DNA from: Takakia lepidozioides
Taxonomy: Eukaryota; Plantae; Bryophyta
NCBI GenBank assembly: GCA_030704615.1
Contig: CM060731.1
Location: 66,588,001 to 66,652,000 of the forward strand
Direction: 5' to 3'
DNA length: 64,000 nucleotides
Of the stretch, positions 18,193 through 64,000 are shown in pieces; the first letter of the stretch is position 1, and every line of letters begins with the position of its first letter. The translations under genes and the position numbers were made by a program. The notes below the pieces were generated by a model. It was not told the origin of the DNA and did no database searches. It saw nothing but the letters and a program-made list of their open reading frames with translations.

Positions 18193-18883
18193 CTAGGACA
18201 AAACACTTTGAATAGCCTTGAGCATGTATGATCTCACATGTGCTCTCTCTCGAAGTGTACCAACATAGCTCAACAATGATAAATGCTTGTTTTTTACGCC
18301 GCAGATGACATCATTTCGGGTGGCAAAACTCTCAAAATATCCCGACATCCCTCTCCAATGCAATGCAATGTGTTTTGTGAGGCATAAAGTCAATATTGGC
18401 ATAGATAATGGACATAATGTTCCCCTCCGCCTGGAGTGTCTCTGGTCGAGGCCGCTTCACGCCACGATTTCCGTGGAAAGATGACAAACACCCTTCTTTA
18501 CTGAGCTTTTTATACTCCATATACGTTGACCTACCAATTCCGTGTATTATCCACCATGCTTTCTCACAAACATCAACACCTTCTATTGTAACATACGATC
18601 TGCGCGATGCCCCTTCCATGATGTGAAGTCGTTTTGAAACATTCAATCCAAGTTCTCTCCTCTCATCGAATGACGAACCCCAAAATGCAGTACAAATTGC
18701 CAAGGTTTTTCTCCAATCAAAATATTGGCAGCAGTATTTGTTGAGTCCCTTCTGATGACATCTCAAAGATAGAAACCCACTATTGACAAACTCAACTCTA
18801 TTGAAGTTTACTGTGGAGTCAATGTAGCCCCTGGACAACAAGCTCTGGTGACTTTCATGAGCCCTATAGCCCAGGTTGGACAA
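18193..18883 (-). pseudogene. Fragment of a DNA-transposon-associated protein (N-terminal region resembling Sola/DUF7869-type transposases)
   Basis: YCCQ.F...R..FW...YVTIEGVDVCEKAWWIIHGIGRSTY..YK...HGNRG..RPR..T..A......DFMPH pattern, recalled from memory; no catalytic core seen; truncated and frameshifted. Confidence 0.4.
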
Positions 18884-19987
18884 TGATTGTCTTATATGGA
18901 ATCTACCTCGGGATATTAGGGAGGTTAGCAGACAATGAATGTGGCCGCACTATCTCATTAGAGTACCATACCTACTGCAATTGTGGTTCAAAAATCTGAC
19001 CCGCCCATAGAACGTTAATTGGATAGCGATTGAGTCAGAGGCTACTCCTGTCATGCAAAATGTCCAAAAGAAAAAAGAGCTTTGCCTCATGATGAGGCAT
19101 TAAAAAAAAGAAATCCCCAAAAATACCAGGGTTTAGTGGCGCCTCAATCCCTTTCTACTTTCTGGGATAAAGAGCTGGTCCACTGACCGTCATTACATCA
19201 AGCACAAGAGATGGTATACACCTCGACAAATATTACTACTTTACATAACAATTTCAATACCCATAATACATGCATTCACATATGCTTCAAAACTATCCAC
19301 CGCCATCCAATCCCTCACGACCATCATCACTAACATACGAGAATTAGAAACCAATACCCTCTAGGTCATGATATGCATCGCTATGCCTCTGTTTTCATAG
19401 GGCCTTCCTTGAAAAGGAAGAAGGGTCAATAGCCATGATGTTAATTATGCCAGCTTTGGCCGGAGTCTTCTCTCTCTCTTTCTTCATAAATGCCCAAACC
19501 ACAACATTGTGGTCATTGGTTCATTTGCTACAGCGAGTAAATCAAGATAAATGATGTCTGATCAAGTTGGTGCCTAAAAAAAAAGATTACACACCTAGTT
19601 CCTGACACACTGGACTTCATTTTTTAATTTATTTAATCAAAAGGGGGAATGGAGCTCCATTACTCAAATTGAGCAAGGAAAAAACAACCTCGCGGTCGCC
19701 GTGAAGCTTACAAGAGGGTTGGAGTGTATAACGCCAACTTAGTTATCTTGCAAGCAGTGAGACAAGAAAGATGGAAAAGACCGTCTGCCATCCACATAAC
19801 ACAGGATGTCACAGTTGCCACTAGAACCTGGAAGCCTGGGGCGACAATGTCACTAACTCTAGCAAGTTATAGGCTGCGGAAGGCCCATTTCATAATGTGA
19901 AAAACAGAAACCATCCTCCATCACAAGAACTACACTACCATGCAGCTGTGAGCACGCATAGTGGAAACAAAGAACTACCACTCAGGT

Positions 19988-23323: not shown

Positions 23324-26300
23324 TTAGATGAAACCCTCAAGAAGTTTGCGCAAATCTTCATCTGCTCCCCCTCGCTGCGTAGTTCCTCCCACTGTAAGAG
23401 GCAGCCACATCTTGTGAGAATAGGCTCCCGACAAAAGTCAAGCTCAAACATGTAAAGTTTTTGCATCCTTTCCTCCAACTCAGGCCTTCAAATGCTAGAA
23501 GGTGAGCAGCCTGTGTAGTGGCCATGATGGCTTAAGTCATAACCATGTGAAAATATCTTAAACAATAGGAAATTCTGTTCACGTTCGGTGTGACCTATGC
23601 ATTAGAAAAGATTTACACATCTCACAGGTCTGCGCAAAACTTTTACTCATTGAAAAACACACCTAGTTAGGCCCTCAGTGTTCGTGCAAGGATTTAGTTC
23701 TAGTGGTGCAGTGTCCTATAAAGTGTTTGGGCTTTCCTGGAAGTTAGATAGCACCTCTGTCTCATCCCTCAGGCAGGTTTTCAGCAATTTCAGTGCTTTC
23801 CACTCTACGGACTACTACAGGAAGATGGGACGACTTATCTTCTGAGGATAAGAGGTGCCAGAGTTGCACCATATGCGAAGTGGAGAGAAAGAGTAATTTT
23901 CTCAGGCCATCATTACTACATGAGAGCAGATACTGGAGTCTTTTTAGAGATTCTCGGTCCCATGCACACTTGATTTTTGAAGTGTGCTTTGGTTTCTGTG
24001 GATCTACTCCATTAATGTACATCCATCTTTTTAAGCCCTTTGACCCTCCCACGGACATATAATCCATATTTCACTCTTTGTTTTCGCTCTAATCTTATTT
24101 TTGGCTTTCTGACTCCTTTTGGCCCCTTAGACACAAAGGGCCTCCTATGGATGTCTACGTTTTCTTCTTTATTTGTCTTTGTGGAAAACTGAGCCTCTGC
24201 ACATTGGACAAGCTCTAACGCTCAATCTTACCTCTTGGTAAGGTAGGGGAATAACCATCCATCCAGCTGCAGCCAAGAGCCTACGCTTCAAAACGGTGTG
24301 GCCAAGTGGTGTGCCTGCAAAGCAAGATGAACAGGCATCAACTTAAGAAAATTATTTACTGTGGTTTGATCCCTTCTGGCTGGACCACCTCAACATAGAG
24401 GGCTCTCAGGCACTGATAGGTTGCCATGGACAAGGATGAGCTTTAACTGATCCTGGTTCTGAAGTGTTCCTGTGTACCAAATGCTAAGCATTATAGCTGC
24501 ATAAACCTGTACAGCCACCAGATATCCATGCCTTTCCCCCTTTTCCCTCACTTTAATTAAGCTTATGCTTCATTTCACATCCTTGAGGATCTTGTTTGGA
24601 GTGAGATCTGTTTTTTATTAACAGAAACAAAGTAGACTTCGTGCATCATATGCAAATAGATAGATTGAGATGAGAAACGAATAAGAGACGTTCAGGGTCC
24701 AGAAGTTGGTTGGTGTGGCTTTGTTTTATAGAAATATTAGGCAATAGCGTATGGTCGGCATTGGAGTGCGCCATCAGGATATCCAAACTCAAAAAGTTGC
24801 TGGTAGGCATCTTCTTGACTACAACTTTTGCTTTACTGAATTAGCTGACATAATGGCATATATTCACAGTGCCTTTAGTGTCATGCATATATGTGCATTC
24901 TTTCCTGCCATTGTCAACAAATGTCCCTCAATAGAGATTGAAAATGCACTCACCTGTATTGCGAGTAAAATGTGTCGGACCATCAATCTCAAGAGCAAGC
25001 CTGGCCTCCACCAAAGCAAGGTCCAACGTGTATTCAGCTGCCAGATACTCTGGTACCCAATTTCGTCCCGTCCCAACCAGCAGGCGCTCTACCTCCTTCT
25101 GATGGATAGACGTCCACTTGGTACCTGCCTTCTCCTCCTTCCAAGCCCCTGCCAAGATTTTCTCCAAAGCACTCCCTAACTCCAGGCCTAGATCAGGAAG
25201 TTCTAATTGCAAACTCAGATTTACCTGATACAGCTGTGAAAGATGTGACATATCCTTGGATTGAAAATCAGGTTTGCACTGTGATGTAGCAACCCTCCAA
25301 CTGGCAGTGAGGGCTGCCCACAGCTGAGCAAAAGAAGGGCGGGCTAGTTGGCCGAGCACAGCATATGACCATGCCATGTTGGCAAGCTGCTGTAGACTGA
25401 AACCATTGAAGAAATCATGTTGTGCAGTGGGCTGATCCGCCCCTTCCCCTGGTTCTAGAAAAGAGTCGAGAGCATCAAGGAATGGGTCCGCTGGCTGATA
25501 CAAATTGGCGAATGCCCAAAAGGAGTTGGACAAGCTCTTGCGGCCGGAAGCTCCGAGCAACAAGGCTTGCCTGCGTGGCCAGTTCTAGAAAGAGAGCAGG
25601 AGAAGCATGCTGCATGGAAGCCAAGGCACCTGCTGTGTTGGCAATGTTCTGGGGTTTAAACTCCAGCTTTCGCTTCAAAGCAGCACCACCAACCCAGTTC
25701 ATCTCATCGAAACACAGTAAATGTCCACCCACTTTAGAGAGAGCCCATGCAATATTGGAGATGCCCTGGGCAGAGCAGTCGGGTAAAGCCAGCATAGCTG
25801 CATTGACGAGCTGCACCATTTCCTTTTTTCTTGCGAACGTAAGCCTCTCGCTCTTGGACATTGACGTGCTCTCCATATGCTTGGCGACCCTGTGAAGGGC
25901 GGTGGCCGAATTGAGCGGACTGAGAGGTATTTTCTTGGCCCGGCGTGCACTGCCCATCGCCTGGGTAACCAAACGAAGCACAGATTCACCATCAGCAGCC
26001 TCTACTAACCGTCTATTCAATCCACGCTCCTCTCTGTATTGATCCCTTGCTAACAGATCCTCCCAATTGTTTGTAGAGGAAGAAGAGGTGGAAAGTTCTC
26101 CAGCATATCTCCTGGACGATAGCACCGTATTTGTGCCTCGAGTTTTGCCCCACACGGCACTTGCCAAGGCACAACTATCTGCCTCCGTGTTCCTTCCATT
26201 TCTGTCAGCTTCATATCCATTTTGCAACCATTGTGACTTGGCGTCAACATTTCTATTCCTTCTGACACGCACTGCACGCCCTTCGCTCGATGGAACATCT

Positions 26301-26377
26301 CCATTTCTCCATCTCCACAAGGCTGAAAGAAAAGTGCTTCCTCCTGGTGCTGCTAATGGAAACATAGTCTGCCACAT
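23324..26377 (-). pseudogene. RAP: Chloroplast RAP-domain/OPR-type RNA-binding protein gene, 3 exons (~26377-24954, 24314-24232, 23391-23324), two frameshifts
   Basis: LSPLNSATALHRVAKHME...AQGISNIAWALSKVGG and RAP domain YTLDLAL..RLALEIDGPTHFTRNTG|TPLGHTVLKRRLLAAAGW..IPLPYQE|WEELRSEGEQM match recalled land-plant RAP; GT-AG introns in consistent phase; +1 T at ~25518-25521 and an apparent -1 at ~23355. True start codon uncertain. Confidence 0.88.
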
Positions 26378-27491
26378 CCCCGTCCTCAATGACCAGCATC
26401 TCTAGTAATTACCTCCAAGCGTCTGCATGAGATGGCTCTACATTTTTTGTGCCACATGGATGATTTCCACCCAGCAGGAAAGGTCCGCTCTTGCTTCACC
26501 ACAACCCATGTAAGGAATTCAACAGTATGTCTAACAAGGATGCAACCGCTGTAGAACTTATGGAGTCTAGCCTCCAGCATTCCCTGGATCACCATCTTCT
26601 GTTAAACTAGAGTCTCACACCTATCTTTCTGGAAATGGGTTTTGATGCAGTTACTCTGAAGGCCAACATTCTTTGAGGATGATGCCTGCTACCAGCGATA
26701 GACCAAAGTATCCTGTGTGGGCAAGGTATGCGCAATAAGGGCCATACTTTGAAAGATCCCATAGGCCGATCAGTTTGTTTAGCAGTGTACATAAGGGAAA
26801 TATGTGATGGCGGACAGCCGGCAGCCAGAGGCGCCAGCCACTCCCACTTTACCCATGGCGGGTCTATGCCCTCCCCCAAATCAGCTATCAGGTACGCGGA
26901 GGCCTCCCACAAAGCTTCCCACCACCTCCTTCTCGGCAGCGGACACGTTCACTTGAGCGTACAGTCTCTTATTATAGCCCATCCCATCAAGCACCACCAT
27001 CTTGTCAACCAGACCCAATGCCTTATGAGTTCGACGACTTTCTTTGTACTTGTGCTCATCGTGCTGCTAAGAACAACATCAATGGCATTCCCAATGCTTT
27101 TGTCTTCGTAGATTCTATAGCCAACTGGCACAGGCTATGTCCATCTTGCATTGGGCTACTCTAGTTGGCATGGCTTCGTCTCATCTTTTTGCTCTTCCCA
27201 ATGTCACACCCATTTCTTTGTCTCATGTCATTCGCGCATTTGGATGGGATGATCATTTGGTTTGATTAGCTTGATATGTTGTATTTTTCATTTCTTTATG
27301 TTAATTCTTCCCTTGCTATGGGAACTTTCCATATTTTGTACAGTTACCTCATGACAGTTTGTAAATAAAAGCTTTGCAGGGTTTCATTATCCAGGTTGTG
27401 GTGGGATGTTTGCCCATATTAGGGGTCTTGCGCGTCATCAGCATATGTTTCATATAGCCCATCAATATTATCAAGACGGTCGTATACCTAC

Positions 27492-37834: not shown

Positions 37835-38416
37835 TTAATATTACTATTGGGCAACACTCTCTTTTTCAAGAATAAAATAAAATACCATCCATTGGCATAT
37901 AATGAAGAGGAAAAAAATAAAACCCCTGAGAAGCCATAAGGTAGATTAGACACCCCGGTTGAGGACAAGTCCACCCATTAACCCTTAAGTGTCAATCCAA
38001 CCCGTTTTGGGTTGGTTAGGTTTCTTTTGTTAGAAGTCAGCTCAGATTTAGTTAGCTAGGGTTCTGTTAGGGTTTTTTGACGGCTAGGGATAGTTCTACC
38101 AGAAGGTTCCAGCCACCAGAATTTTCTAGAGAACTCATGTAGGATTTAAGAGAAAGGCTGAGGCAATGCCCAGCACTTCTTCTAGCATTTTGGATGTGCT
38201 ATCCTAGTAGATTGCAGAGAGAGGAGGAGGAGACGTCCAGCATCTACTTTTGTAAGTTTTTTCTTTTGCAGTAAGGAGCATTCTTGTTAGGACTGACACT
38301 TCTTGTTAGTACTAACTCTTTGGTTGGTTTAGGCTGTCAGTTTTTGTACTGCTGCTTGTGCTAGAAGCTATCTGTCAATATCACTAGGAGGTAGAGGACA
38401 GGTCTAGTTTCCAACA

Positions 38417-38430
38417 GGTTATGGGCCCAC
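38417..38430 (+). promoter_or_regulatory. PBS complementary to the anticodon arm of tRNAiMet (half-tRNA priming)
   Basis: GGTTATGGGCCCAC directly after the LTR is the reverse complement of GTGGGCCCATAACC in plant initiator tRNA-Met. Confidence 0.88.
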
Positions 38431-41400
38431 AAGACGTTACAACTACTTGGACAGTTGAGCCACTGGATGGCAACAACTATAAGAGTTGGATCTACACGAT
38501 GCAGCTCCTGCTCTCTTCAAAGAGCCTATGGTCAATAGTGGCTAAAAAGCCTTCAGAGGATAACCTGAAGGAGGAGAGACGGATCCAAAAGAATGAGCTT
38601 GCAATGGCAGCTCTAGTCACAAACATGAGATCAAAACTGGTAGTTTTGATAAGGAATCTTACAACTGCTCATGAGGTCTGGCAGACCTTAAGTGAGGTGT
38701 ATGAGGCAGATGTGATGGGGAAAGCATATGTCCTATGGAAACAGCTCATGGACTTGAGAATGAGAGAAGGTGAGAGTGTAGCCATTCACATTGCCACTGT
38801 TAAAGCCATGTGTCTGGAGATAATTGATGCGGGAGAACCCATGACTGAATCACTTCAGATCATGACCTTGTTTGGCACCTTGCCAAAGAGTTATGACATG
38901 GTGGAAACCGCATTGGCTACTCATGGTAAGAGTAGACTGAGTTGGAAGTATGTCACTTCACAACTCATCATGGAAGAAAGCAAGCTGACTAGGGGTAGCT
39001 CAAGTATGGACAATGCCCTGACGGCTACTTCCATCAAGAAAGATGAAGCATGTTTCCGATGCGGCAAATTTGGGCATTTCCAGAAGGACTGCAAGGTGAA
39101 GATTGACAAGCCCAAGAAGGACAAGTGGAGACCAAGGAAGGGAAGTCTGTACATGCACATGTCGTTGACATGGGCAACGACAGTGAAGTTCACCTGTTTA
39201 TGGCAGATGCAGCTTATACTCGTGATGAAGACTACCTGCTGACTACTGAAGGAGAACACTGTGGAGATGAGTGGTATTTGGACTCTGGAGCTACTAACCA
39301 CATGTGTGGGAGGAATGAGTTGTTTCACAACTTGAAACCCATTCAGCCTAGGAGCGTAAAGATGGGCAACAAGACGTTTTCTGTAAGTACGATGATGGGA
39401 GAAATCCCTGTCAACTTTATCAGAAAAGAGAGTAAGGTTACCCGTTGTACCCTTCAGAAAGTCCTATATGTGCCAGACTTGGCAAAGAATCTGATCTCTG
39501 TTAGTACCTTGGATGAGCTTGGGTATGATGTCATTTTCAGAAACAATGCTTGCAGCATCCAGAAGGGCAACGAGGAACTCTGCTATGGAGTGAAGGAGCA
39601 GAGACTCTACAAGCTTTTGAGTACATCTGGAACTCAGGAGGAGGCCAATGTTGGGGACACAATGGACACTGCACCATTGTGGCATAGAAGGTTGGGTCAC
39701 TTGGGGACACAAGCGATCAAGGATCTTCAAAAGTTGGCGTTGGGACTGAATGTGGACTGGTCACATGAGCTACAGTTCTATGAATGATGTGCTAAAGGGA
39801 AACAACACAAGTCATCAATGCCCAAGGAATCTGCCACAAGAGCCAAGGAGAGGCTGGAGTTGATACACACAGATGTGTGTGGCCCCATGAAGACAACATC
39901 ACTGGGAGGATCTAGGTACTTTGTCACCTTCATTGATGACATGAATAGAAAGACTTTCTTATATCCCTTGAGAGAGAAAGGTCAAGTGCTGCAGGTCTTT
40001 AAGCAATTTGTGCATGAAGTAGAAAACCAGCTGGACCTCAAAGTCAAGGTTCTGAGGAGCGATGGTGGGGGGGAATTCCTAAATCAGGAATTCAAAAACT
40101 ATCTTGCTGAGAAAGGCATAAAGAGCCAAGTAACAGCGAGGGACAGTCCAGCCCAGAATGGAGTGGCAGAGAGATTAAACATAACACTGGTTGAGAAGGC
40201 TAGATGTATGCTACAGACCTCAGGCCTTGGACCAGAGTTTTGGGGAGAGGCGATCAGCACTGCCACCTATCTGAAAAATTTGAGTCCCGTGAGCTTTGAA
40301 AGACATGACTCCAGAGGAGGCGTGGAGTGGGAAGAAGCCAAACCTGAAGCATCTAAGAGTTTTTGGTTGTGCTGCTTATGCATGATACCTGACGAGCAAA
40401 GGAGCAAGTTGGATGCCAAGTCAGAAAGATGTATCTTCATTGGGTATGATCTGGGTTGCAAGGGGTACAAGGTCTACAATCCTAGAACCCAGAGGTCAAT
40501 CAGGAGTAGAGATGTCCTGTTTGATGAGGATAATTTTGGGAAGGAGACAAAGCCCAAGGACCTGTCCGTTCCTGTGATAATCCTTGATGTGGGAGAAAAA
40601 AAAAGGGAACAACCAGTACTAAAGGTTTACACTCGAAGAGAGAAGGTGGCGAAGAAACCAGAAGAGGATGAAGATTCTGAAGATCGGGATCCTATTGACA
40701 AGGATGGGGGGCCTAGAAGGTCAGGAAGGATCAGCAACCCCCCAGAAAGGTTTGGAGCTAATGTGGCAGAAGGACTGACTGGTCTGACTATGGATGACAT
40801 AGGGCAGATGGAAAGTTGTTTCCATGCCCTTGATAATGCAGAGGAGCCAGCCACCCTCAATGACGCTTTGGCAAGGGATGATGCCAATGAGTGGGAGGGA
40901 GCTGTACTAGAGGAGATGAAATCTCAAAAAGAAAACCAGATTTGGGAGCTGGTAACACTGCATGGTGGTAGAAAGGCGGTAGATTGCAAGTGGGTTTTCA
41001 AAGTGAAAAGAGGACCCAACAATGAGATAGTGAAGTACAAGGCCAGACTTGTGGCCAAAGGTTTCACACAGACTGCAGGGCTTGACTACAATGAAACTTT
41101 TGCCCCGGTGGCAAAGTTCACCTCCATCCGATGTTTACTGGCATTGGCAGCGAAGCATGACTGGGAGATAGAACACATGGACGTGAAGACTGCATTCTTG
41201 AATGGGGATCTCCAGGAGGAGATCTACATGAAACAACCAGAAGGCTTCCAAGAAGGTGATAAGGTGTGTCGGCTCAAGAAATCGTTATATGGACTCAAAT
41301 AGGCATCGAGGACATGGTATGAGAAGATCAATAGCTACTTGACAGGCCAAGGTTTTGTAAGGAGTACAGCTGATCAGAGCATTTACTACATGACATCAGG

Positions 41401-42397
41401 TGTCATGATAATAGCACTCTATGTGGATGACCTGCTACTGATCAGCGACAACAAGGATACCATGCGCAGGCAGAAGCATGATTTGAGTGAAACCTTTGAG
41501 ATGGTTGATCTTGGAGCCGTGAACTACCTACTTGGAATTCAGATTCTGAGGGACAGGAAGGCGAGAACTATAAAGTTGAGCCAAGAGAGGTATGTCAGGA
41601 ATGTTGTTGCGAAGTTTGGTATGCAGGACTGCAAACCAGCACCAACACCATTGGAAACCGGCTGCAAGCTGAGTAAGGAAATGGAGCCAAAATCTCCAAG
41701 TGAGATTGAGGAAATGGCTAAGGTTCCATATCAGCAAGCCATGGGATCTCTGATGTATGCAATGATTGGCACCAGGCCAGACATTGCCTATGCAGTGGGA
41801 ATGCTTAGTAAGTTCATGCACAACCCAGGACCTCAGCATTGGAAAGCACTCAAGAAGGTGATTAGATATTTGAAAGGGACTGCGGATACATGTCTAACTT
41901 ACAACAAGCAAGACACTGGAGCATCACTAGAAGGATACAATGATGCAGATTGGGCAGGAGACACAGATGAGAGGAGATCCATATCTGCCTACTGCTTTGT
42001 AATGAGTGGAGGTGCTGTGAGCTGGAGCAGCAAAAGACAGCAGACCACTGCTCTATCCTCAACTGAGTCAGAGTATATGGCTCTGACTCATGCAGCTAAA
42101 GAAGCCATTTGGATTCGAAGGCTTCTTGGTGAACTTGGCTTCAGTCAAGAACAGCCAACGAAAGTGCATGCTGATAACAGGAGCAGCATTGAGCTGAGCA
42201 AGAATCCTGTTCATCACGCCCGGACCAAGCACATAGATATCAAACATCATTTCATTAGAGAAATGATTGGTTTGGAGATTGAGTTGGTTTACTGTAGGAC
42301 TGAGGACATGGCAGCTGATGCACTCACAAAGGCTCTATCCAAAGAAAAGCATTCTAGATGCATGGAACTGATTGGGTTAAGCCTCAATCCTCGCTGA
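38421..42397 (+). pseudogene. Copia gag-pol (gag, CCHC, PR, INT, RT, RNase H) with stops and frameshifts
   Basis: CFRCGKFGHFQKDC; WYLDSGATNHM; LWHRRLGH; IHTDVCGP, LRSDGGGEF, QNGVAER; YKARLVAKG, LYVDDLL; DADWAG, RTKHIDIKHHF. Frameshift ~39120, stops at 39785 and 41300, compensating frameshifts ~40290-40380. Confidence 0.96.
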
Positions 42398-49709: not shown

Positions 49710-50392
49710 TCATGTACGAAGGTAGGGCAACACTGCTGCATCTTCACACACATCATTAGCACCACCAAGCTCCTCACTGATCTCCGGATCGTCATGCACA
49801 CCATCTACATGACCAATCCTATGGGATGGACCAACTTGAGCTCCCATTGCTAGGATGCACAAAAAGGCAGATGCCTGCCATCCTGGCACCATCTCCTCAT
49901 CCGTCTCACCGTGCCACCGAGCTCCAGTATCATTATGCTCGCTCATGCATGGATTACAACTCAACCCATCTGCATCCCAATTGATTATACCGGCTCGATG
50001 CACCACCTGGAAGTCGTACTCTTGAAGCATAAGTGCCCACCGTGCAAGCTTCCCTGTAAGCTTGTCTGACTCCATCAACCACTTCAATGGTTGGTGATCC
50101 GTGACAAAGTTGAAGAGGTTGTCATAGAGGTAGCATCTGAAATGTGCCACTGCCCATACCGCAACTAGACACTCCCCTTCATATGAGCTATACTTCGTCT
50201 CAGCATCATTGTTCGAGCGGCTGGCATAAGCTACTACGAACTCTCTTCCCTCGTCATCAACCTGTGTGAGCACTGCTCCAATTCACAGTATACTCCAATC
50301 TGTATGTAGCTGGAAAGGCCGCCCCCGAATAGGCCGCCTCAGAATAGGTGCAGAAGTCAATTGAGCCTTGAGTTCCTCAAAGGCTTCATCAT
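49710..50392 (-). pseudogene. Ty3/gypsy RNase H and linker
   Basis: AFEELK..LTSAPIL..FQLHTDWS..IGAVLTQ; VAYASRS; YSSYEGECL; VTDHQPLKWL; LARWALMLQEYDF; DADGLS. Confidence 0.93.
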
Positions 50393-51377: not shown

Positions 51378-52200
51378 CGAACTCTGCTAACATCTATGGG
51401 GCGTGGAATGCGTGCAATGGCCTCCACCTTTGTCTTTTGAACACCCAATCCTCCAGGGTATATCATGTGGCCCAGCTACTCAATCTGGTTGTGGAAGAAC
51501 TTGCACTTCCTAGGGTGCAATTTCAACCCATGCGCTCTCAAGCGCTCAAACACCATCTGAAGGTGTCTCTCATGCTCCTCAACCGTAGCACTAAAGACGA
51601 CGATGTAATCAATGTAACACCGGGCAAAGTCTAGCCCTGCAAGAATCCTATCCATAATCCTCTGAAACTCTGCAGAAGCATTCTTCAACCCAAACGGTAG
51701 GAACCGCCATTGGTACAAGCAATCCTTCACATGTTGGTCAATCCCCCAGAATGCCGTCTTTTGCTTGTCAGCCTCTTTGATTGGCAACTGGTGGTAACCG
51801 GATCGCAAGTCCAATGTGCTAAACACCTTTGCATGCCCAATGGCATCAAAGATCTCCTCTGGAGTTGGCATGGCATATCTATCGGACTTAGTATGACGAT
51901 TCACAGGACGGTAGTCCCCACAAATCCTTCTTTATGTCCAATTGTCATAGATATCCTTTTTAACCGGCATTACCGTTGCCGAGGCATACTCCTCGCCTGA
52001 CAACTCCACCAATCCAGCTTCGAACAGCTCTATAGTCCGTGACTGGATCAATGACCTTTCCATGTCACTATACCGGTAGGGCTTTCGCAAAATTGGCAGG
52101 TCACTTGCCAAATCAATACGAATCTCCTGGCCCTTCAAACTCCCCAAATCCTTCAAACCGAAGGCAAAGCAATTTCTATAACCCTTTAGAAATCGCTGGA
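51378..52200 (-). pseudogene. Ty3/gypsy reverse transcriptase
   Basis: RKPYR..; RICGDYRPVN; FSTLDLRSGYHQ; KTAFW; LPFGLKNA; CYIDYIVVFS (YIDD>YIDY); KCKFF; *LGH. Confidence 0.95.
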
Positions 52201-52669
52201 TCCTCCGTCTCTCTCCTCCGGTGTCTGTAGGTCCAACATCTGGTTCCTAGTTGTCCTTAGTGACTGCAACCTTGGGTACACCAGGCTTGGAGGTAAGAGA
52301 CGCATCCTTTGGTTGCTAGATAGCAACCTCTTGGGCCTTATCCACCCACCCTGACTGTGGCGTAGCCTCCACTTGCTTTGCCATAGCCACCTTGAGAACA
52401 TCCTCTAGGGAAGAAACATTCTCAACCTCTTCAAAAACATTGGTCACCTTGGCCTCCAACTGATCATCAGTGTATGGCTCTCCTCACTCCTCATATTGCT
52501 GCTTGAGATATCCAAGGACTCTCTCTTTCCGCATCTCACCCCACATCTGTCATGGATGTTTGCACCTCATGATCATGTACTCGCTCCTACTCACTGCCTC
52601 AACCGTCCCGGTTCGCAGAGGGGATGCAATACCAAATGGGAATGCAGAAGTAGCCACCAATGTCTGCAA

Positions 52670-53710
52670 CCTCTGTTTCTCAGCCATGCACAAGCCAATG
52701 ACCCATGTCAAGCAATTTAGATCCATTGCTTGACCCAACACTTGTCAGCGTGATGCCTCTGACACATCTGACACAGCTGTAGTGCCCGTGGCAAATCCCA
52801 TTGCCCACTCTCGCTCATCCGCATTGGGCTCTACCAATTGCTGTAGCACACTGTCCCAAATCAACGCAGGACCATTGTCTCGAAAAGCATGAGACGAGGG
52901 AAAGCTCATGAGCGTAGGCAAGGCTGCACGTGGCTGCCCCACTCGATTGACCACTGCTAGAGGTGGATGGTCATCATGGCACACCCTTTGTGGTTGCCTC
53001 CCTTGGTCCAAAATGCCCTGATTGGGTTCTGTCCGCCATAGGCCGCTCCACCCGCTTTTCCTTTTGAAGCACCGGGTGCCGCCTTGATTGCTGAAGGTCC
53101 GCCGTTGAATGGAATCGTATGCTCTCTTGAGCAGCTCTGGTGGTGCAAGATTGGTCCACCATAATCGAGGTCGATGCGCGCGTGATCCCACCGCTACTGC
53201 GTCCAATAGCACCGCCGATCCAATCCAAGACCGCACTTGATGCACACTGGCCATAACCCTGGCCCGAGAGTCCCCCATAAGAGGAACATTCTCCAAGATA
53301 TAGGCTAGAGGTTGCATTTGCCTCGTCTATAGGTCACGCAACACTCTCAACATCTCCCAAAATAAATGCGATCGTGCATCATGCAAGCCATTCCCATGAC
53401 CTGCGGGAGAGTGTCTTTGGCAAGGCCATCTAGCTATCACCAAGTCAATGGCACCATGCCGGTCCAAATCATCCACCCCCAGCAAGGTAATGTCTGCTGG
53501 CAAGGCTTTTTGATACCCTTGAATTGCTAAGAGAGGCAACAACTCAGGATACCGGTGTGTGAGCAAGGCAATGTGACACATAGAAATACGCCGAGTTATC
53601 TCATCCTTCTCCACATACAAATACTTGCGTACTTTAATCCCTGCTTGCAACACTCCTGCAAGCCCAGTGCTCATGCCTCCAAACAGGTCTAGCAAACAAA
53701 TCCCTGAGTC
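52670..53710 (-). pseudogene. DNMT3-like cytosine-C5 methyltransferase domain within pol
   Basis: Motif I LLDLFGG; II YVEKD; III ADIT; IV DLVIARWPCQ (PC at 53425-53420); VI YILENV (53293-53285); VIII SRAHRPRLWWTNL; IX EREWAMGF..GTT; X R*QVLGQAMD. Two internal stops. Confidence 0.93.
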
Positions 53711-55919: not shown

Positions 55920-56089
55920 GTGACATATAAAAACAATATAGGGCTTTTGGAGGATTTTCAAGGGCCTTTTGGAGGATTGTTTGGGGGATCTTTGGGGTCC
56001 TTTGGGGAGCTTTTGGAAGACATTCTGAGGAGTTTTTGTAAGGCATTTTGAAGAGCTCTTGAAGAGGTATTTGGATGACTATTTGGAAG

Positions 56090-56410
56090 CTTATTTGCGG
56101 TCCTTGAAGGCCAAGTTTTGGCAAGTTTTTGGAGCCTTGGAAGGCTATGTGGAGGACCATTTGGGGTCTTTGAAGGCCAAGTTTTGGCAAGTTTTTGGAG
56201 TCTTTGAAAGGCTATGTGGAGGACCATTTGGGGTCTTTGAAGACCAATATTTGGCAAGTTTTTGGAACCTTTGGAAGGCTGTTTGGAGGGTTGTTTGGGG
56301 TCCTTGGAGGCCGATATTTGGCGAGCTTGAGGAGTCTTTGGCGACTTGTTAAAGGACTATTTGGGGTCCTTGAGGGCCGAGATTTGGCAGGCTCTTGGGG
56401 CCTTGGTGTA
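56090..56410. repeat. ~65-bp degenerate tandem repeat in the LTR
   Basis: TTTGGGGTC.TTGAAGGCCAAGTTTTGGCAAGTTTTTGGAG recurs about 5 times. Confidence 0.85.
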
Positions 56411-57113
56411 CTATTTGGAGTACTATTGTCCAAGCTTTGGGAGTCTTAATGAGATTGTTTGGGAGACATCTTGAGGGATCTTAGAGAGTTATTTGAGAGA
56501 TCCTTGAAAGTCTTGTCTATTGCTTAAGCAAGAGAGTGTGGAGATAGGGTAGTGGGATGAGAGCATGCTGTGATAGGAATTGCTTTAGTCTCTCTTCCTT
56601 GTAGTATTCCACCCTCTCTGTAGGCCAAAACCTTTCCGTAGGTGGAGGCAAGAGTCAGTCCGGGTTTGGGCTGGGGTGTCTTGCAGAAGCGACACTATGG
56701 AGTGTTTTTGGTGTGGGGGAGTTACTGTTTTGATTTCCTTGTGCTTGGATCCCCTCCATACATGCATGCTTGACTGTGCGTCATGTTAATTTTGTGTGGG
56801 CGTTTGTTTTCATAGGAGGTTGGTCCGGATTTGATCACCGATCAATCCTAGAGCGTACTGTCGATGGTGAGGCTGGGGTGATGACCAGTCAGACCATCAT
56901 GTTCTCTTATGGTGAGGTTGGGTTGATGACCAGCAGACCATAGGAGTGCTTGCAGTGGATGCAGGTGCAGGTGCAGGTACAGGTCTACATTAGAAACCTA
57001 TTATTCATGCTTGAACCAGTAGCCGCAACAGGTTCTCTACCCGGTTACCTTGTAGAAAGTGGGGATTAGAGACAGGTTGACAACCGGTTGGATTGTGAGT
57101 TTTCATCACGGAG

Positions 57114-58670
57114 GTGCCACCAGTTGCTGAGGGGAGTGTCGGTACGGGCACCAACGATACTAGTGGGTACACAAGACGAGGTGTGCAGTTTAGGCCACCT
57201 TCACCTTCAGTGTCTTCTGATGAAGGTTTAGACTGGGAGTCGGGAGGATTCTCGCCGAGGGTGCAAGTCATTTCTGTGCCATTATTGTGGGACACGATGG
57301 AGGAGATGTATGGAGCTACCAAGGGGCCACGTAGGTACTCTAGAGCTGTGGGCACCATCGAGTTTGATGACTTCATACAAGAGTTTGACAGTTGGTGTGA
57401 ATCCACAACTGTTTACGCCTTTTATGGCGTGGAAGGGGCTATTCCAGCACCTTGAGGGGCCGCCCATGGATGATTACCATGATTTTAGGCGGGGACACGC
57501 GGTGGAGATTGAGGAGTGGCGATAGTATTGGTCACCTAACTATGTCTCCATCACTAGAGGCACAAGGGCAGTGGCGACACCAGTAGCTATACAAACATCT
57601 CCAACTGCAAGCACTAGTAGTGGGACAAGTGGTACAGGAGCTGGGAAATCCACTCAAGCTCCTGCTGCAGCACCAGCACCCGTGCCTGCCTTTAACCCAG
57701 TTGTGGAGTTCTTCGAGGAGTTGAGGAGAAACTACCAAGGGATAAGGACATAGAAGTTGCGGAGCTTGCAAGAGTTCCAATGAAGGTCTACTGAGAGTTT
57801 GAGGGAGGCTTACATCCGCATGAGGCACTTGATAAACGTAACCCAATGGGTTACAGAATCTCAGGCAGTCCAGTTCTGGTATGGGATCCTGGACAAGGAG
57901 CTGAGGAGAAGGGTGTGGGATGCAACTCTCCTACAAGTGGACCAACCCACCTTAGCAACTGTGTTTTTGCTGGTAGAGCGGATAGAGCTCAATATGGTGG
58001 AAGAGCGAGTGGTCATGGTAGGGTTTGGCAAGGAGACACAATGAAGCGGGGCTCCTAGCCAACAACAACCACTATCCCAACGTGTTCAAGGCAACAAGGA
58101 GGCTCAGGTGAAGCCGAGGGAATGACAGAGAGGATCTCAGATGCAGAGGTTTTTTCCTTCATTCTCAGGCCAACAACAGTCGGGTGTGACTTGTTGGGAT
58201 TGTGGAGGACCCCATGTCAAGAAGGATTGCCCGAAGAGAGGCAAAGGGTCGGCACAGGCACAGCCTACACAACTACAGTATGGGCATTGTGGAAAATATG
58301 GGCATGAGGAGGCCCATTGTTATGGCTTGCATCCTGAGCTACGGCCAGGCCAGTTCCAAGGGAACAATGGTGGCCGAAGACGAGGCAATGTAGTCCCAAG
58401 AGGTAGAGGAGGCAGAGGTCGGGGTGGAGGTCGTAACCAAAATCAAGGAGCATAGGATCAGGGTCAAGATCATGACCAAGGCATGGTGGATAGACTTGCC
58501 CAGCTAGAGCAACGTCTTGCTGCCATGGCCACTACTCATGTTGTGCTAGCTCCAAGACTTGAGGTTCAAGCCCCACCTGTACAACCTCTTATGCCTAGGG
58601 AAGACCAGATTGGTATGGGCTTCATGTGTGGAGCCGCACTTGCAGGGCCATTGCATGTATTGGACTCTGC
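57114..58670 (+). pseudogene. Retrotransposon gag with two zinc knuckles and an RGG tract
   Basis: EFFEELRRNYQG...Q*RSTESLREAYIRMR...QFWYGILDKELRRRV; CWDCGGPHVKKDC; YGHCGKYGHEEAHC; RGRGGRGRGGGR; several stops; cut at ~58673. Confidence 0.82.
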
Positions 58671-59279
58671 TGCGCGCTGCTGTCACTCCAACGACGCAAT
58701 GGCGTGAGCGTTGCGCGTGAGCACGAGCGTACGCTCACGCAGGAATGACGTGGCGTGAGCGTCATGTCAGCATGCTGATGTGGCGGTAAATGATGACGTG
58801 GCACTGTCCGTCATCTGCTACGTCAGCATTAACATGCGCCGCCTATAACCGTGGATGGTCCTATGACCGTGGAATTAATGCAGGGAATCTTGCCTAAATA
58901 GAATCAAGACGAGCGTTGAGGCCTACAATTGCAGCATCCAACATTGTGCAATTACAAATGCTTGTTTCACTTTTACAATTACGAGGACGAAAAAATATCC
59001 TCACAAAGTGTGCGCCATAAAGGCTGCCACGGGAAGACCTTCATCCCTCCTCAAATAACAATGAGAGTTAGGATCATCTTCAAAAGATGATTGTAGTGCA
59101 TAGCGACAGCAAGACATGTAGACTTCGAACGGTGCAATGACAAATGTGCACTACCTAAAAGTTGTCACTCAGAGCTCACTCCGTATAGTTGGAGGCCATA
59201 TCATTGCACCGCCGACGAATTGATGTGAATTACACATTTCAAATCATGGTCGTCCATATACCACATTGCATAGTTGATG

Positions 59280-61674
59280 CTACCCATGTGTTGTATCCCG
59301 CTGCAAAAGAGTATCGACCTCGTTGAAACTCATGGTGGCCTGGTGAATGAAGTTGTCACGTTTGGGATCGCAAACCATCCTCTTCAAAAATATGAAATAC
59401 AAATGTTTGCAGGGTATGAATTTACCTCTCTTGCCCAAACTGGTTGATAGCATATTCACAAAATCAGGACATGTGCAATTGGGGAAATTGGAAACCGTGA
59501 TGTCGTAGGTCCTGTCATGAACAGCAGATGTGGAAGTGATGATTGTGAATACCCGACCATATCCTGGATCGGGTACTTCCGTGGTGCTTCCAACACGAGC
59601 TTGGAGCATTCTTGCGGACTCCACTTTGCCAAAGTGTTCAGCGGTTGGAGGGAAACGCCGAACGAGCTTTCCATCTCGTTTGGTTGGCCACAAGTCAGGA
59701 TTTGCCGGGGGGACCCGGGAGGACGCAGAAGTAGTAGCACATGTATGGAGTTAGGGTTGTCTCGCAAGGGAAAAACCTGCCTCCTCCAGCATTTCAATCT
59801 CCTGAAAGCTGAGATGTGTTCCCACCTTCACGGACCAAACGGTTGGAGGAGATGGCTTCATCACTATGGAAGGACGCACACATCTGGCACAATCATCTGC
59901 GCAGAACCAGAACTTGTGGTTCTTGGCTTCTGGTTGACCGTATGGACGCATCAAGCCCGTGAAAGTCGGAGCAGGAGTTCGGGCACCACCTCTAGATATA
60001 GATGAAGTGCACTTCTCAAAATTAGTTATCGCTGTACATTTCACACGAGACCCTACACTTGTGCGTTCTATGTGCCAAACGTGGTCGGGGCATGCGGACT
60101 CAAGCACATCAAGGGGGTTGTTTCTCTCCTGCACCATTTCAGTGGCACTGTTTGATGCTGGAGCTTGCCGTTGTGTTGGAGGTTCCTCCACAATGGAGGT
60201 TCCAGACATGGAGCTGTTATGCAAGGGAACACGAGGCTTCGAGAAGTTATCACGGTTGCCCTGTGGGAATCTGAATCCGAACCAGGTGGAGTGTTCAATT
60301 TCCTCTTACAGGAGCCGAATCTCTCCTCCCCTCCAAGATGTGGAACTCTAGAAACAAGTGGCGTTCCCTGGGCATACATGCTCACCGCCCGTGCTATCTT
60401 GATTGGATCCCCAGATCTGTTTGCAACACGCAACATCAACTCCCATTTGTCCGGACCCTTGCCACCAACCCCACCTCGTAAGAAATCACGGTATCGGGTT
60501 TGTTGTTGCAAGGCACGTATCAAATCATCTGTTGTTGCCACATACAAATCCCGACCTCGTTTCCCAGACTGCTGCAACCATGCGTTGTGCACAGTTTCTG
60601 CCAAATTGCAAGATGGCATGTCCGCCATTTCCTCAATGGACATGTTCTGCAAAGTGCAGAACCACACTTCAAAACAGTGAACAGAAAACAACATAAAGAA
60701 AGCGAGGACACAATAAAATGGAAAGCAAATGTATGAAAAATCAATAAATATAAGCCTCGTACCAATGGCATGGTTGCTCCCCACTGTCTATACCGGAAGT
60801 GCCAAAACGCCAGCCAATCTTCCAATGCTCTCATACTCTCAAGTGATGCAGCTCCACAAGAGAACCACCAGGCACGAATTGTCTGGAACAAAGTGTCCGC
60901 CTCCTTCATTGTTCTAGCATCTTTGTACTCTTTGCACAATTTACGGTGCTGAGTCTGCATCTCTGGTTTGATGTCCGACTTTGTATGTTTTTCCAGAGAT
61001 TGTGTCCAATGGAATAGACATGTACGCTCTCTTCCTCGCATTGGCACTTTTGGGTCGCCCGATCCGAAGACAATACGAACAACATTGAAATTAGTCTCCG
61101 GCAAGAACTTCACAGGCACCTGCTTCAAAGATTCCCAATCAATTCCCCGTAACTCCCTTTTGAATCCAGCCATTCCTCCCATCGCCCGCAATTTTGGAAT
61201 GACATTACAAATCTTTTCTTCATCAGCTTCTCCAACCATAGTAGGAAGGACTGGATTTGGAATTTCACTTATGTCATCATCGGAAGAATCCGAAAGCTCA
61301 ACGATTGGAGTGGAGGACGTCTGTTCTTTTTTCACCACCACCTCCCTCTTGTCTTCAACGACCGAAGCAGCAGTCCCGGGTGTCACATATGACCCAAGAG
61401 ACTTTCGCCGAGGCTCTCCAAGTACTCTGTATCAACCAGGACGTACTCTCCACTGGCTGATATGAGCCGTCTCATCACGGTTTTGGAAAGAGTATTTCAA
61501 CAACTTCCCTTTAAGATCGTACACCTCTTTCTCCAAAAAGATGGAGCCATTCTGCAGCTGAAAACGGGTAGCCAAGACATGTTCCAGAACAATTGCAAAT
61601 CCATTGTCAAGGACTTCCTGGGAGAACGGCACTGGTTTGTCGTCAGAGAAGAACTCCGCTTCAGAGGAAGCCAT
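59280..61674 (-). pseudogene. MULE-type transposase with C-terminal SWIM zinc finger; intron 60762-60647; internal deletion, stops, frameshift
   Basis: CxxH motif CLFHWTQS; WLAFWHFRYRQWG; CNLAETVH (catalytic-E region); SWIM YDITVSNFPNCTCPDF...PCKHLYFIF; GT-AG intron joins PL|NMS in frame; first two catalytic Asp not found. Confidence 0.75.
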
Positions 61675-62531
61675 CTTCCTTCCTCGCGTACATTTGTACC
61701 TTGCTATCGCAGATCTAGTGTAAATCGGTTTTACTGATGTCTCCAGAACACAGTTGAAGAATGAGCAGAGAATATGGCGGAGGAAGCTCAGACAACGACT
61801 GTGCATATTATGTTATTCTTTCCAGATATGCAGCCGTCCATTTTAATTACTTTTCTTGTGGGCCCAATGGTCAGAGTATCCCTAGGAGCAGTGTCGGCAG
61901 CTGTTAAACCGTTAACCAGAACCTCATCAATAAACCCAATAACAAAGCCGACTTCCTGGAAGCATGCCACAGGATCTGAGGATGGGATTGCAGATTAAGT
62001 AAATGTATCTTTATACTACTACCAATGATCATGCGCACCTGAAAAGTTCCAAATGTGAAACGAATGTGGGGTTTGGCTAACAAGGATGACCGTGTATGAT
62101 ATTCCAAGATTTGTCATCAAACTCTCGTTCATTTACATTTATTTGTGTAAGACTGTGCGCCAAGATTTCTGGGATTCGCTGTTATTTTTAAATATTGAAA
62201 CCGTTCTAATAAAGAACACGCCGTTTATTTTGGGCGACACACGTCAGACATCCATAACTGAATACGAACAGCTGTACACCAATTGCTGGCATGTGCACTA
62301 ATAAGGGAACGACTATGTGTAACGGTCACGCGAGAGGGAATCCAATGCTTCTAGAGACACGCAAGAACGCAGGCAATCCCGCAAGAAATCGGGAGTCACT
62401 GCGTTTTTCTACTTTTCGCGCTTAGAGAGAGAGTGGTAGTCAAGGTGGAGAGGGTTCATTCTACAATACGAAAGAGAAGAAAGTCTCTTTATTTTACTTC
62501 CCTTAGAGAGAGACGCAGAGCAAGAGAGCAA

Positions 62532-64000
62532 ATGACGAGGCGTCGTTTGTTGGAGAACACAGGGCCAAGGCAGCAGGTGAACGCGGAGACTGATTCAGAA
62601 GAGCAGACGGAGACTGAGGCAGCGGCTGTGACACAGTCGGCGATACAAGTGAGCCAGCCTGTGGAGGCAGAGATGATTTGCAAGGACACTGAAGGAGGTG
62701 GAAGCACGCGGAACGCCGAACCGGGAGAAGGTCCGTAAACCCTAGAGCAGACAGAAATTCCAGCAGATGTGAGAGGGAAGAGGAAAGCTGCAGAAGGGGA
62801 TCCAATTTCAAAACCTAAGAAGACGCCAGTACATTTTATCTAACTTACATTTCATTGTTGAAGATATGCGTAGAGATTGAGTGGAATGTCCCAGACAGGG
62901 ATTGTCGCTACCGACCATCACAAAGGTGATTTGCTTTCTACTCCTCTGCTAAGGGTTTACCGCACAATGAGTGGGTGACTATCGGTACAGTCATTCACTG
63001 TTGTTCAGATCATACAGTCTGTCTGATTGCCTTTCAAGGAGTCCTTCCTCTTCCCTTCTTTAGCAGGAACTACTGAATTGCAAGCGTCGTTAACGCCATT
63101 CGATTCTCCTCATGAGATTTATGTACCTATGTGTTTGAAGAGAGAGTGAGGGTCGGCATACCGTCAATCATCGTTGTTCAGACCATACAGTCTATCTGAT
63201 TGCCTTTCAAGCAGTCCTTCCTCTTCCCATGCTGGCGACGGTAATCACAGTGGAGTCAATCTGAATAATCTGCACTTACTGTCCGCCCTAAACTATACTG
63301 AATGTCGTTGCCGCCAATCACTTGCACATAGATGTCATTACACAACACCGATCCGGCAGGTCGTTATCTTTTGTGATTGTCGTTAACGCCGTTCGCTATC
63401 GCTCTCGCTTTTGTTTTGAATACGGCAGTATCAGCTTTGCTTGTGTAGATTGTGCTGAATTGTTTCACACCATTCATAGTGAGTTTCTTTGAGACAAAGT
63501 GATGGTCGTTACCGCCATTCACTATTTGCAAATTACTCAGTCAGAACTGAATGGCATCGTGCAGAAAACTGTGAGGTCGAAGCCTACAGGATCAGAGGGG
63601 AAAGGATCTGGAGATGGGGACGAGTCCGCAAAAAGCTCAGAGAATACAGATGAAGCAGATGAATCTGAAGTGCACTACCTTGACAAGGTGAAAGAACTCA
63701 TGTCATTCCAGAAGGTAAACTCTCAGGAGGTTATAAGGGACATGCTCGTATCTGGAGGGCGTCTGGACATCCCTCTGTGCCGGATGATATCAATGCCTGT
63801 TGTGCGTCCACCTCTTTCTCATGACATAACAAAATTGGAGAGTGATTTTGTGCATGGATATAGACTTGGTGCACAAGTTTTTTATCTATCACTGACGGAT
63901 ATAAATGGGAAAAGCACATTAGTGTCTCCAGAGATCAGTGATAACTGGGATGAGTGCTGGAAAGATGCCAATGAGGAGTTCGAGCTGGGCCTCATGATGG
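62532..64000 (+). CDS. Divergent transposon-borne gene, probable ParB/Srx-like domain protein (exon 62532-62828, exon 63565->64000; one in-frame TAA at 62736; incomplete)
   Basis: Acidic N-terminus and NLS-like RGKRK..KPKK; phase-0 GT(62829)-AG(63564) intron; frame open to the window end: LDIPLCRMISMPVVRPPLSHDITKLESDFVHGYRLGAQVFYLS...W...W...NEEFE. Not in the supplied ORF track. Confidence 0.6.
62985..63230. repeat. Intronic direct repeat, ~174-bp period
   Basis: GTTGTTCAGA.CATACAGTCT.TCTGATTGCCTTTCAAG.AGTCCTTCCTCTTCCC at ~63000 and ~63173. Confidence 0.8.

Follow-up and report, generated by a model that had tools for sequence, protein, structure and literature searches.

A dead copy of a MULE-like transposon in Takakia lepidozioides with a second gene of predicted ParB fold and an intronic palindrome array

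Transposons that carry a gene for a ParB-like accessory protein have been described in algae. Here we analysed a 64,000-nucleotide stretch of the genome of the bryophyte Takakia lepidozioides (assembly GCA_030704615.1, contig CM060731.1, positions 66,588,001 to 66,652,000 of the forward strand; hereafter the window), in which the gene of a transposase resembling those of Mutator-like elements (MULEs) lies next to a second gene, whose family domain is predicted to have the fold of ParB and sulfiredoxin (Srx). Passages of PMC12477816 describe Sola1-1_Ec32 of Ectocarpus, which has an accessory gene with ParB and N4C/N6A methyltransferase (MTase) parts on the strand opposite to the transposase; its product was proposed to bind and modify its own element. 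The likeness lies in a protein of ~1,100 aa with a ParB-like part and an N4C/N6A MTase (1104 aa there, 1147 aa in P0003, a relative of the Takakia gene from the moss Ceratodon purpureus). The brown-alga element has a Sola1 transposase, whereas the one described here is MULE-like and bears a SWIM finger; the two were compared by domain layout, not by sequence. According to passages of the Bostrychia preprint (bioRxiv 2025.02.11.637652), red-algal Plavaka elements carry ParB-like accessory genes beside inverted-repeat arrays, and homologues occur in Mutator elements of Chondrus. These genes, PAG2 and PAG3 (Plavaka (EnSpm), Chondrus Mutator, Zisupton), share with our locus a ParB-homologous protein, adjacent tandem inverted repeats and a PF01555 methylase on the same element. 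In the passages that describe them, however, the fusion partner of ParB is a 2-oxoglutarate (2OG) oxygenase, and the methylase comes from its own SET-fused gene within a three-gene cassette, whereas the relative reported here has ParB joined directly to the methylase and the Takakia array is intronic.

VANDAL elements of Arabidopsis likewise combine a MULE with a second gene. As described in passages of PMC5735166, VANC binds introns of its own elements, and its short target motifs lie in introns and other non-coding parts and vary between families; it is a different protein, its motifs are non-palindromic and 8-9 bp long, and its demethylation has been demonstrated, whereas the present system is known from sequence alone. 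According to the Bostrychia preprint, in the passages concerned, no transposon system other than VANDAL/VANC is known to bind its own sequence and modify it (bioRxiv 2025.02.11.637652). The ParB(+methylase) accessory genes may represent a second such system, and a much wider one. With bacterial ParB, Noc and KorB, whose palindromes are of the parS type, the family shares the predicted fold, a GxxR-type motif and a conserved terminal Asn; it differs from them by a Trp-rich insertion of ~45 residues and an identity of only 11-19%. MpDN4MT1 of Marchantia (bioRxiv 10.1101/2021.02.12.428880) and the bdelloid N4CMT (PMC8885841) are, like the methylase-like part considered below, beta-class amino-methyltransferases of prokaryotic type found in eukaryotes. 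Both belong to the host and have canonical SPPY-type catalysis (TSPPY in MpDN4MT1) and no ParB domain in the passages concerned, whereas P0003 has DTPF.

The initial annotation of the locus had suggested a possibly undescribed module. This view had to be given up, as ParB(+MTase) accessory genes are published for Sola1-1_Ec32 (PMC12477816) and for Plavaka and Mutator elements (bioRxiv 2025.02.11.637652), in the passages cited. No account of a land-plant MULE with a ParB-like accessory gene was found in the literature searched, which excluded subscription journals, Repbase and Supplemental Table 6 of the Bostrychia preprint (PAG-carrying elements). The land-plant MULE version is also absent from the relevant passages of PMC4738411, PMC8885841, bioRxiv 2021.02.12.428880, PMC6446971, PMC12973397 and bioRxiv 2026.08.24.746577. 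The locus is probably a new land-plant MULE-like member of the ParB(+methylase) accessory-gene design. It offers a defined candidate target for the protein, a 24-bp palindrome, and a relative is known from a moss, so that binding and methylation are directly testable.

We read the locus, with a probability of roughly 55%, as a decayed, no longer functional copy of a MULE-like cut-and-paste transposon present in many copies, whose second protein, of predicted ParB fold and likely methylase-like, would be an element-specific chromatin regulator acting on the element's own palindromes. The parts of this reading are, in order of decreasing support, that the two genes form one element, that the second protein has a methylase-like end, that it dimerises, binds a nucleotide, recognises the palindromes and spreads, and that it marks or shields the element.

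The two genes and the limits of the element

The minus-strand SWIM transposase (ATG at 61677) and the spliced plus-strand gene (ATG at 62532) are arranged head to head with 854 bp between them, close to the ~860 bp given initially (coordinates are collected in Table 1). The rest of the window is eukaryotic in character and rich in repeats, with decayed retrotransposons as well as spliced genes. The transposase frame runs to a stop at 59280 and contains all the motifs that had been assigned to it, namely CLFH for CxxH, NLAETVH for NxxExxH, the WHIxR...FWFCADDCARC cysteine cluster and a terminal SWIM finger. PF04434 (SWIM) was matched just under the cut-off in the window (E = 0.0018) and above it in the relative P0005 (E = 0.00021). 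Among 28 longer relatives (49-82% identity), N-L/M-A/S-E-x-x-H was kept in 25 and WHIxR in 27. The transposase intron is supported by P0021 and P0028, which have unalignable read-through at the same spot; a diverged DNA copy has 93 other letters in place of the 116-nt stretch.

The intact relative P0021 (1278 aa) has a putative triad of D527 (MFDH), D593 (MADS) and E812 (NLAETVH), assigned by position only. The second Asp is followed by CxxH, which reads CLFH in the window and in P0021 and CLLH in P0028. CxxH is also found in hAT transposases, and a C-terminal SWIM finger is common but not universal in MULEs. The Pfam MULE model had no match to P0021, and P0021 yielded nothing in a PDB sequence search and no relatives among viral contigs. 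In its order D...D...CxxH...E...SWIM and its D-D spacing (66 in P0021 versus 69 in Muta1, where passages of PMC5225508 give D214, D283, H307 and E419), the putative MULE-like transposase resembles Muta1.

The window copy is dead, and both genes are pseudogenes here. The transposase has a TGA at 61432-34, an internal deletion of ~370 codons at 61092/61093, a frameshift at 60256 and a TAA at 59751-53; the plus-strand gene has a TAA at 62736-38. An intact autonomous copy is ruled out by these stops, the frameshift and the deletion. The window transposase matched residues 21-~225 and 596-727 (onward) of P0021 and left ~226-595 unmatched; the deletion takes out the N-terminal domain, which is rich in Cys, together with two of the putative catalytic residues, the first and second Asp (D527, D593 of P0021). 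In runs X1, X5 and X6, loose ends of contigs on both sides of 61092/61093 read into the missing segment. At each of the four stop or frameshift sites, contigs of other copies have either a sense codon or an additional base, so these lesions are private to the window copy. Indeed, every covering contig of runs X6 and X7 has T>G at 62736, and the exon 1 stop is thus found only in the window copy. Differences between the window and the contigs of run X6 had A/T in the window and G/C in other copies at 54 of 143 places, and the reverse at 26. Such a skew towards A/T would be consistent with a copy that decayed while methylated.

Both genes and the spacer between them are multi-copy, as judged by contig cover. 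Cover was continuous over 58800-64000 in runs X1, X5 and X6, which come from three studies. In run X5, a depth of 150-300 was reached in nearly all bins of 59019-64000 (transposase, spacer and second gene), compared to 55 in the adjacent gag bin, contig depth not being equal to copy number. The 24,202 X1 contigs on 57500-64000, a range that includes ~1.2 kb of flank, were mostly 95-100% alike. Linking contigs were found as well: record 9 of X6 joins transposase and spacer, and record 16 of X7 joins spacer and ParB-like exon 1. Runs labelled as two other species gave nothing (X10) and three short pieces (X11). The transposase and the ParB-like gene very probably lie in one element, with no contig spanning both coding regions. 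The continuous multi-copy cover and the linking contigs speak for the proposed two-gene transposon, but enclosing ends and a contig with both genes were not seen. The 854-bp spacer is likely a bidirectional promoter.

The element is inserted into a gag-like flanking region, whose contig depth pattern is unlike that of the element. We take this region to be gag on the basis of its CCHC-like motifs; there was no Pfam match. The left end had been placed at 58674, with a target-site duplication (TSD) at 58665-73. Both assignments are wrong because retrotransposon DNA reaches ~58688 and includes them: the loose end of three X7 contigs continues the flanking retrotransposon and matches the window to ~58688 (21 of 23 letters, one 4-nt gap allowed). 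The left terminus is probably located between 58689 and ~58705. MULEs have TSDs of 8-11 bp and long terminal inverted repeats (TIRs), the latter absent in some families. Four of the six window sites of GCGTGAGC fall within 58689..58830. Likewise, four of the 13 window matches of TGACGTGGC (up to one mismatch) lie at 58746-58825, the window-wide count not being above chance. Other copies hold extra units in this subterminal array.

Predicted fold, probable methylase-like end and palindromes of the second gene

As had been proposed, exon 1 is connected, through GT at 62829 and AG at 63564, to a frame that stays open for 145 codons to the window edge. The intron was deduced from splice signals and conserved exon ends in relatives; two presumed-RNA runs showed no joint 62829-63564 and had almost no cover there, and so have no bearing on expression. 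An X6 contig extends 185 bp beyond 64000. Exon 2 is 65-66% identical to the relatives P0001 and P0002 and 39% to Ceratodon P0003. P0001 and P0002 continue with MFFVWDGNHRLQAW ~15 codons beyond the window edge and end at a conserved intron that interrupts the gene. The DGxHR motif anticipated downstream was found as WDGNHR in P0001, P0002 and P0003, ~15 codons past the edge, and the GxxR-type nucleotide-binding motif is accordingly present as GNHR in all three.

The ParB-like family comprises 635 representatives (50% clustering, E <= 0.001), the best 150 of which were used for alignment and motif counts. In this alignment (A5), GNHR is conserved with G in 103 of 122, N in 116 of 121, H in 108 of 121 and R in 91 of 118 sequences. 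The exact xDGNHR occurs in 55 of 149 representatives, many of them fragments or decayed. With the 150-sequence alignment, AlphaFold2 modelled the P0001 domain with a pLDDT of 94.1 and a pTM of 0.87; with a four-sequence alignment the pLDDT was 36. All 32 rows listed by Foldseek against the PDB are ParB, Noc, KorB, PadC, Srx, SbnI, serine kinase or ParB-like structural-genomics entries (best E = 5.3e-3). VIA-align, a second look at Foldseek's own matches, gave Z = 9.5 over 94 residues with Caulobacter ParB 7bm8 (root-mean-square deviation 1.9 A). Sixteen chains reached Z >= 8, and all listed rows of this group are ParB, Noc or KorB. The best viral structure match is a partitioning protein (E = 8.9e-4). 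On these models the domain of the second gene's family is predicted to have the ParB/Srx fold, as had been suspected from short motifs. Within this superfamily, ParB, KorB and Noc rows scored Z = 7.8-9.5 and sulfiredoxins 5.4-6.6; a sulfiredoxin-like redox function was rejected as the leading interpretation on account of these lower scores and of the GNHR motif, which is without Cys. The structural alignment stops where residue 174 of the P0001 model is paired with residue 113 of Bacillus ParB, so that the CTP-contacting Asn112 of that protein would presumably be the counterpart of the conserved terminal Asn.

Sequence searches were less informative. Pfam, PHROGs and NCBIfam gave no ParB match for the window exon, P0001 or P0002. 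Atlas neighbours of P0001 serve as leads only, a DUF3723 cluster (0.94, 47% of members) and a ParB_N cluster (0.90, 11% of members); the middle region of P0003 reached Atlas scores of no more than 0.80. None of 52 pattern matches in viral contigs proved to be related to the ParB-like domain, and a phage tblastn with P0001 returned one match at E = 0.2. The metagenome scan retained three loci of 386 candidates, all 1.5-2.6 kb long and none reaching the methylase; no transposase was found beside the ParB-like gene in these three short loci.

P0003 (M758_1G295400) is the single longer match of P0001 among 450 candidates, with 48% identity, and the only named full-length relative. Its C-terminus matches PF01555 at 903-1119 above the cut-off (E = 4.9e-7) and also phage methyltransferase families (phrog_67, E = 5.6e-6). 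DTPF (motif IV) at 908 precedes DLSASTG (motif I) at 1089. By its sequence, P0003 ends in a beta-class N4/N6 DNA-methylase domain. Canonical beta-class enzymes have (D/N/S)PP(Y/F/W) as catalytic and FxGxG as S-adenosylmethionine (SAM) motif. P0003 and P0004 depart from both, reading DTPF and DLSASTG, and the domain is called methylase-like because both motifs are non-canonical. The join of ParB and methylase-like parts was seen again in P0146 (E = 4.5e-10) and weakly in P0178 (E = 0.014) among 149 representatives, most of which are exon-limited fragments. In P0146 the ParB part is joined straight to the middle of the methylase-like part; it is apparently another internal-deletion derivative. 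At locus L001, the sequence tracks P0003 to residue 724, where the contig ends. The gene of the window element probably also ends in a methylase-like domain, to judge from the relative; this part would lie outside the window. The fused MTase proposed beyond 64000 was thus recovered in P0003, while the element's own downstream part is outside the window.

The intron of the ParB-like gene contains six quasi-palindromic 24-mers, at 62898, 62975, 63080, 63298, 63373 and 63499, with the symmetrised consensus GTGATTGTCG-TTAA-CGACAATCAC. An all-against-all search of the intron detected them as a cluster of six alike 24-mers, compared to at most three in 60 dinucleotide shuffles; their register was picked by eye after the cluster had been detected. 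Among 40 control tiles of the window, two were richer (10 and 8) and one had five, the top tile lying in a tandem repeat near 56000. Each 24-mer pairs at 7-9 of 12 positions around one centre, and in leave-one-out scoring each outscores all 63,182 positions outside the intron. A comparable arrangement was found upstream of the ParB-like exon at L001 (L001:9-193), with six 20-bp palindromes of the type TTTGGGTCG-NN-CGACCCAAA spaced by 32-35 bp. These pair at 6-9 of 10 positions, their sequence differs from the 24-mer of the window and the spacers are unlike. A GTCG...CGAC core is common to both motifs; the spacing differs.

Proposed mechanism and alternative explanations

If the preferred reading is correct, a dimer of the second protein would bind a nucleotide (CTP-like) through GNHR and the terminal Asn, and the region after the ParB domain would recognise the element's own palindromes. 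The loaded protein would then spread over the element in the way that ParB spreads from parS. Its methylase-like domain would mark or shield the element's DNA, either by depositing N6-methyladenine or N4-methylcytosine (6mA/4mC) or by base binding through a weakened methylase fold. The shared divergent promoter, driving both genes, would thereby stay active against silencing by host 5-methylcytosine (5mC). The logic would be VANC-like and the origin bacterial or phage.

Several observations weigh against this reading. The window stops before DGNHR and the methylase, and neither was seen in this element itself. None of the 150 aligned members matched any ParB Pfam family, the Foldseek E-values are weak, and PDB sequence and profile searches gave no ParB, only chance helical matches. 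The N-terminal domain of bacterial ParB does not read sequence, and a DNA-reading domain is here only postulated. The non-canonical DTPF and DLSASTG may mean that the P0003 methylase is inactive. The array varies in length, with 171- and 122-bp intron deletions in other contigs, and no array was present at L002 and L003 within the 500-700 bp of flank examined. In the runs examined no single contig covers both coding regions, and neither the right end nor TIRs nor a TSD were seen. The functional role of the homologues is only predicted, and in algae, in the passages of PMC12477816 and bioRxiv 2025.02.11.637652.

As a tentative and rather doubtful alternative, the accessory protein could be a transposition co-factor without epigenetic role, which bridges or condenses the ends or loads the transposase in the manner of MURB or TnpA, the methylase-like part being a dead DNA-binding module. 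The non-canonical motifs of P0003 would fit such a protein, a ParB fold is well suited to clamping and bridging, and MURA-MURB binding is reported in passages of PMC12973397. However, the palindromes are located in the intron of the accessory gene, whereas the repeats at the visible end are of another family, and of the catalytic motif DTPF retains the Asp, the second Pro and the aromatic residue. The opposite extension is unlikely: a widespread MULE-like class of non-seed land plants with a parS/ParB-like loader fused to an active 6mA/4mC methyltransferase, which would load at intronic palindromes particular to each family, spread, and write a bacterial-type mark against 5mC silencing. If true, the transposon would itself encode an epigenetic writer with sequence specificity, and the Ceratodon relative would allow a test in moss.

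It is improbable that the ParB-like gene is real cargo while the intronic palindromes are self-amplified fold-back filler, with a protein that is non-specific or acts on other targets. A 70-nt duplication with 173-bp spacing and the different array lengths between copies point in that direction. Yet the 24-mers resemble one another although most spacers have nothing in common, and at L001 an unrelated palindrome builds a six-copy array of this kind. Moreover, VANC target arrays likewise evolve through tandem duplication, as passages of PMC5735166 describe. That the ParB-like gene belongs to another neighbouring or nested transposon (e.g. of Sola or EnSpm type) or to the host would agree with the position of the right end outside the window, with the lack of a relative having both genes on one contig and with the movement of ParB accessory genes between superfamilies (passages of bioRxiv 2025.02.11.637652), but it is very improbable given the continuous cover of similar depth over transposase, spacer and ParB gene in the three studies (X1, X5, X6), the absence of spacer positions among the loose ends listed, and one X1 contig that joins 61674 to 62523 (its short side only 23 letters).

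Coordinates and other features of the window

Table 1. Features of the transposon copy and its left flank (window positions).
Feature	Position	Strand	Remarks
Flanking decayed long terminal repeat (LTR) retrotransposon, gag-like region, outside the element	57099..58688	+	fragmented frames, CCHC-like zinc knuckles
Probable left end with subterminal repeat array	58689..58830	.	GCGTGAGC x4, TGACGTGGC-like x4, short palindromes
Transposase exon 2	59280..60646	-	putative catalytic E (NLAETVH), WHIxR...CxDDxxRC Cys cluster, SWIM finger; frameshift 60256, stop 59751-53
Transposase intron, inferred	60647..60762	-	116 nt, GT..AG, phase 0
Transposase exon 1	60763..61677	-	CLFH; in-frame stop 61432-34; internal deletion 61092/61093
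Divergent intergenic region	61678..62531 (854 bp)	.	spacer depth similar to both genes in runs X5, X1
ParB-like gene exon 1	62532..62828	+	99 codons, phase 0, low-complexity N-terminus; stop 62736-38
ParB-like gene intron, inferred	62829..63564	+	GT-AG, phase 0; six quasi-palindromic 24-mers
ParB-like gene exon 2	63565..64000	+	N-terminal two thirds of ParB/Srx-fold domain (IPLCRM, VVRP, FxHGY); runs off window

Elsewhere in the window, a decayed reading like that of a C5-cytosine DNA methyltransferase (DNMT) was noticed at 52300-53500 on the minus strand; a reverse transcriptase (51476-51931, PF00078, E = 1.4e-27) and an RNase H (49710-50282) follow it in frame. This arrangement looks like an LTR retrotransposon with a DNMT inside pol. 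We take the reading to be a C5-methyltransferase from the motifs LLDLFGG, WPCQ, YILENVP, HRPRLWW and VLGQAMD; Pfam gave no match on the one fragment tried. A 205-aa frame at 18332-18949 (-), containing CEKAWWIIHGIGRSTY...HGNRG, had no Pfam match and presumably resembles transposases of the Sola1/DUF7869 type. At 24928-26401 (-) lies a probable host gene for a FAST-kinase/RAP-domain RNA-binding protein, for which Pfam gave weak hints only (FAST_1, E = 0.057). A nearly continuous polyprotein in four frames spans 38388-42397 (+) and is, as we assume from its motifs, of copia type. Finally, a tandem repeat with a period of 66-67 bp occupies 56070-56450.

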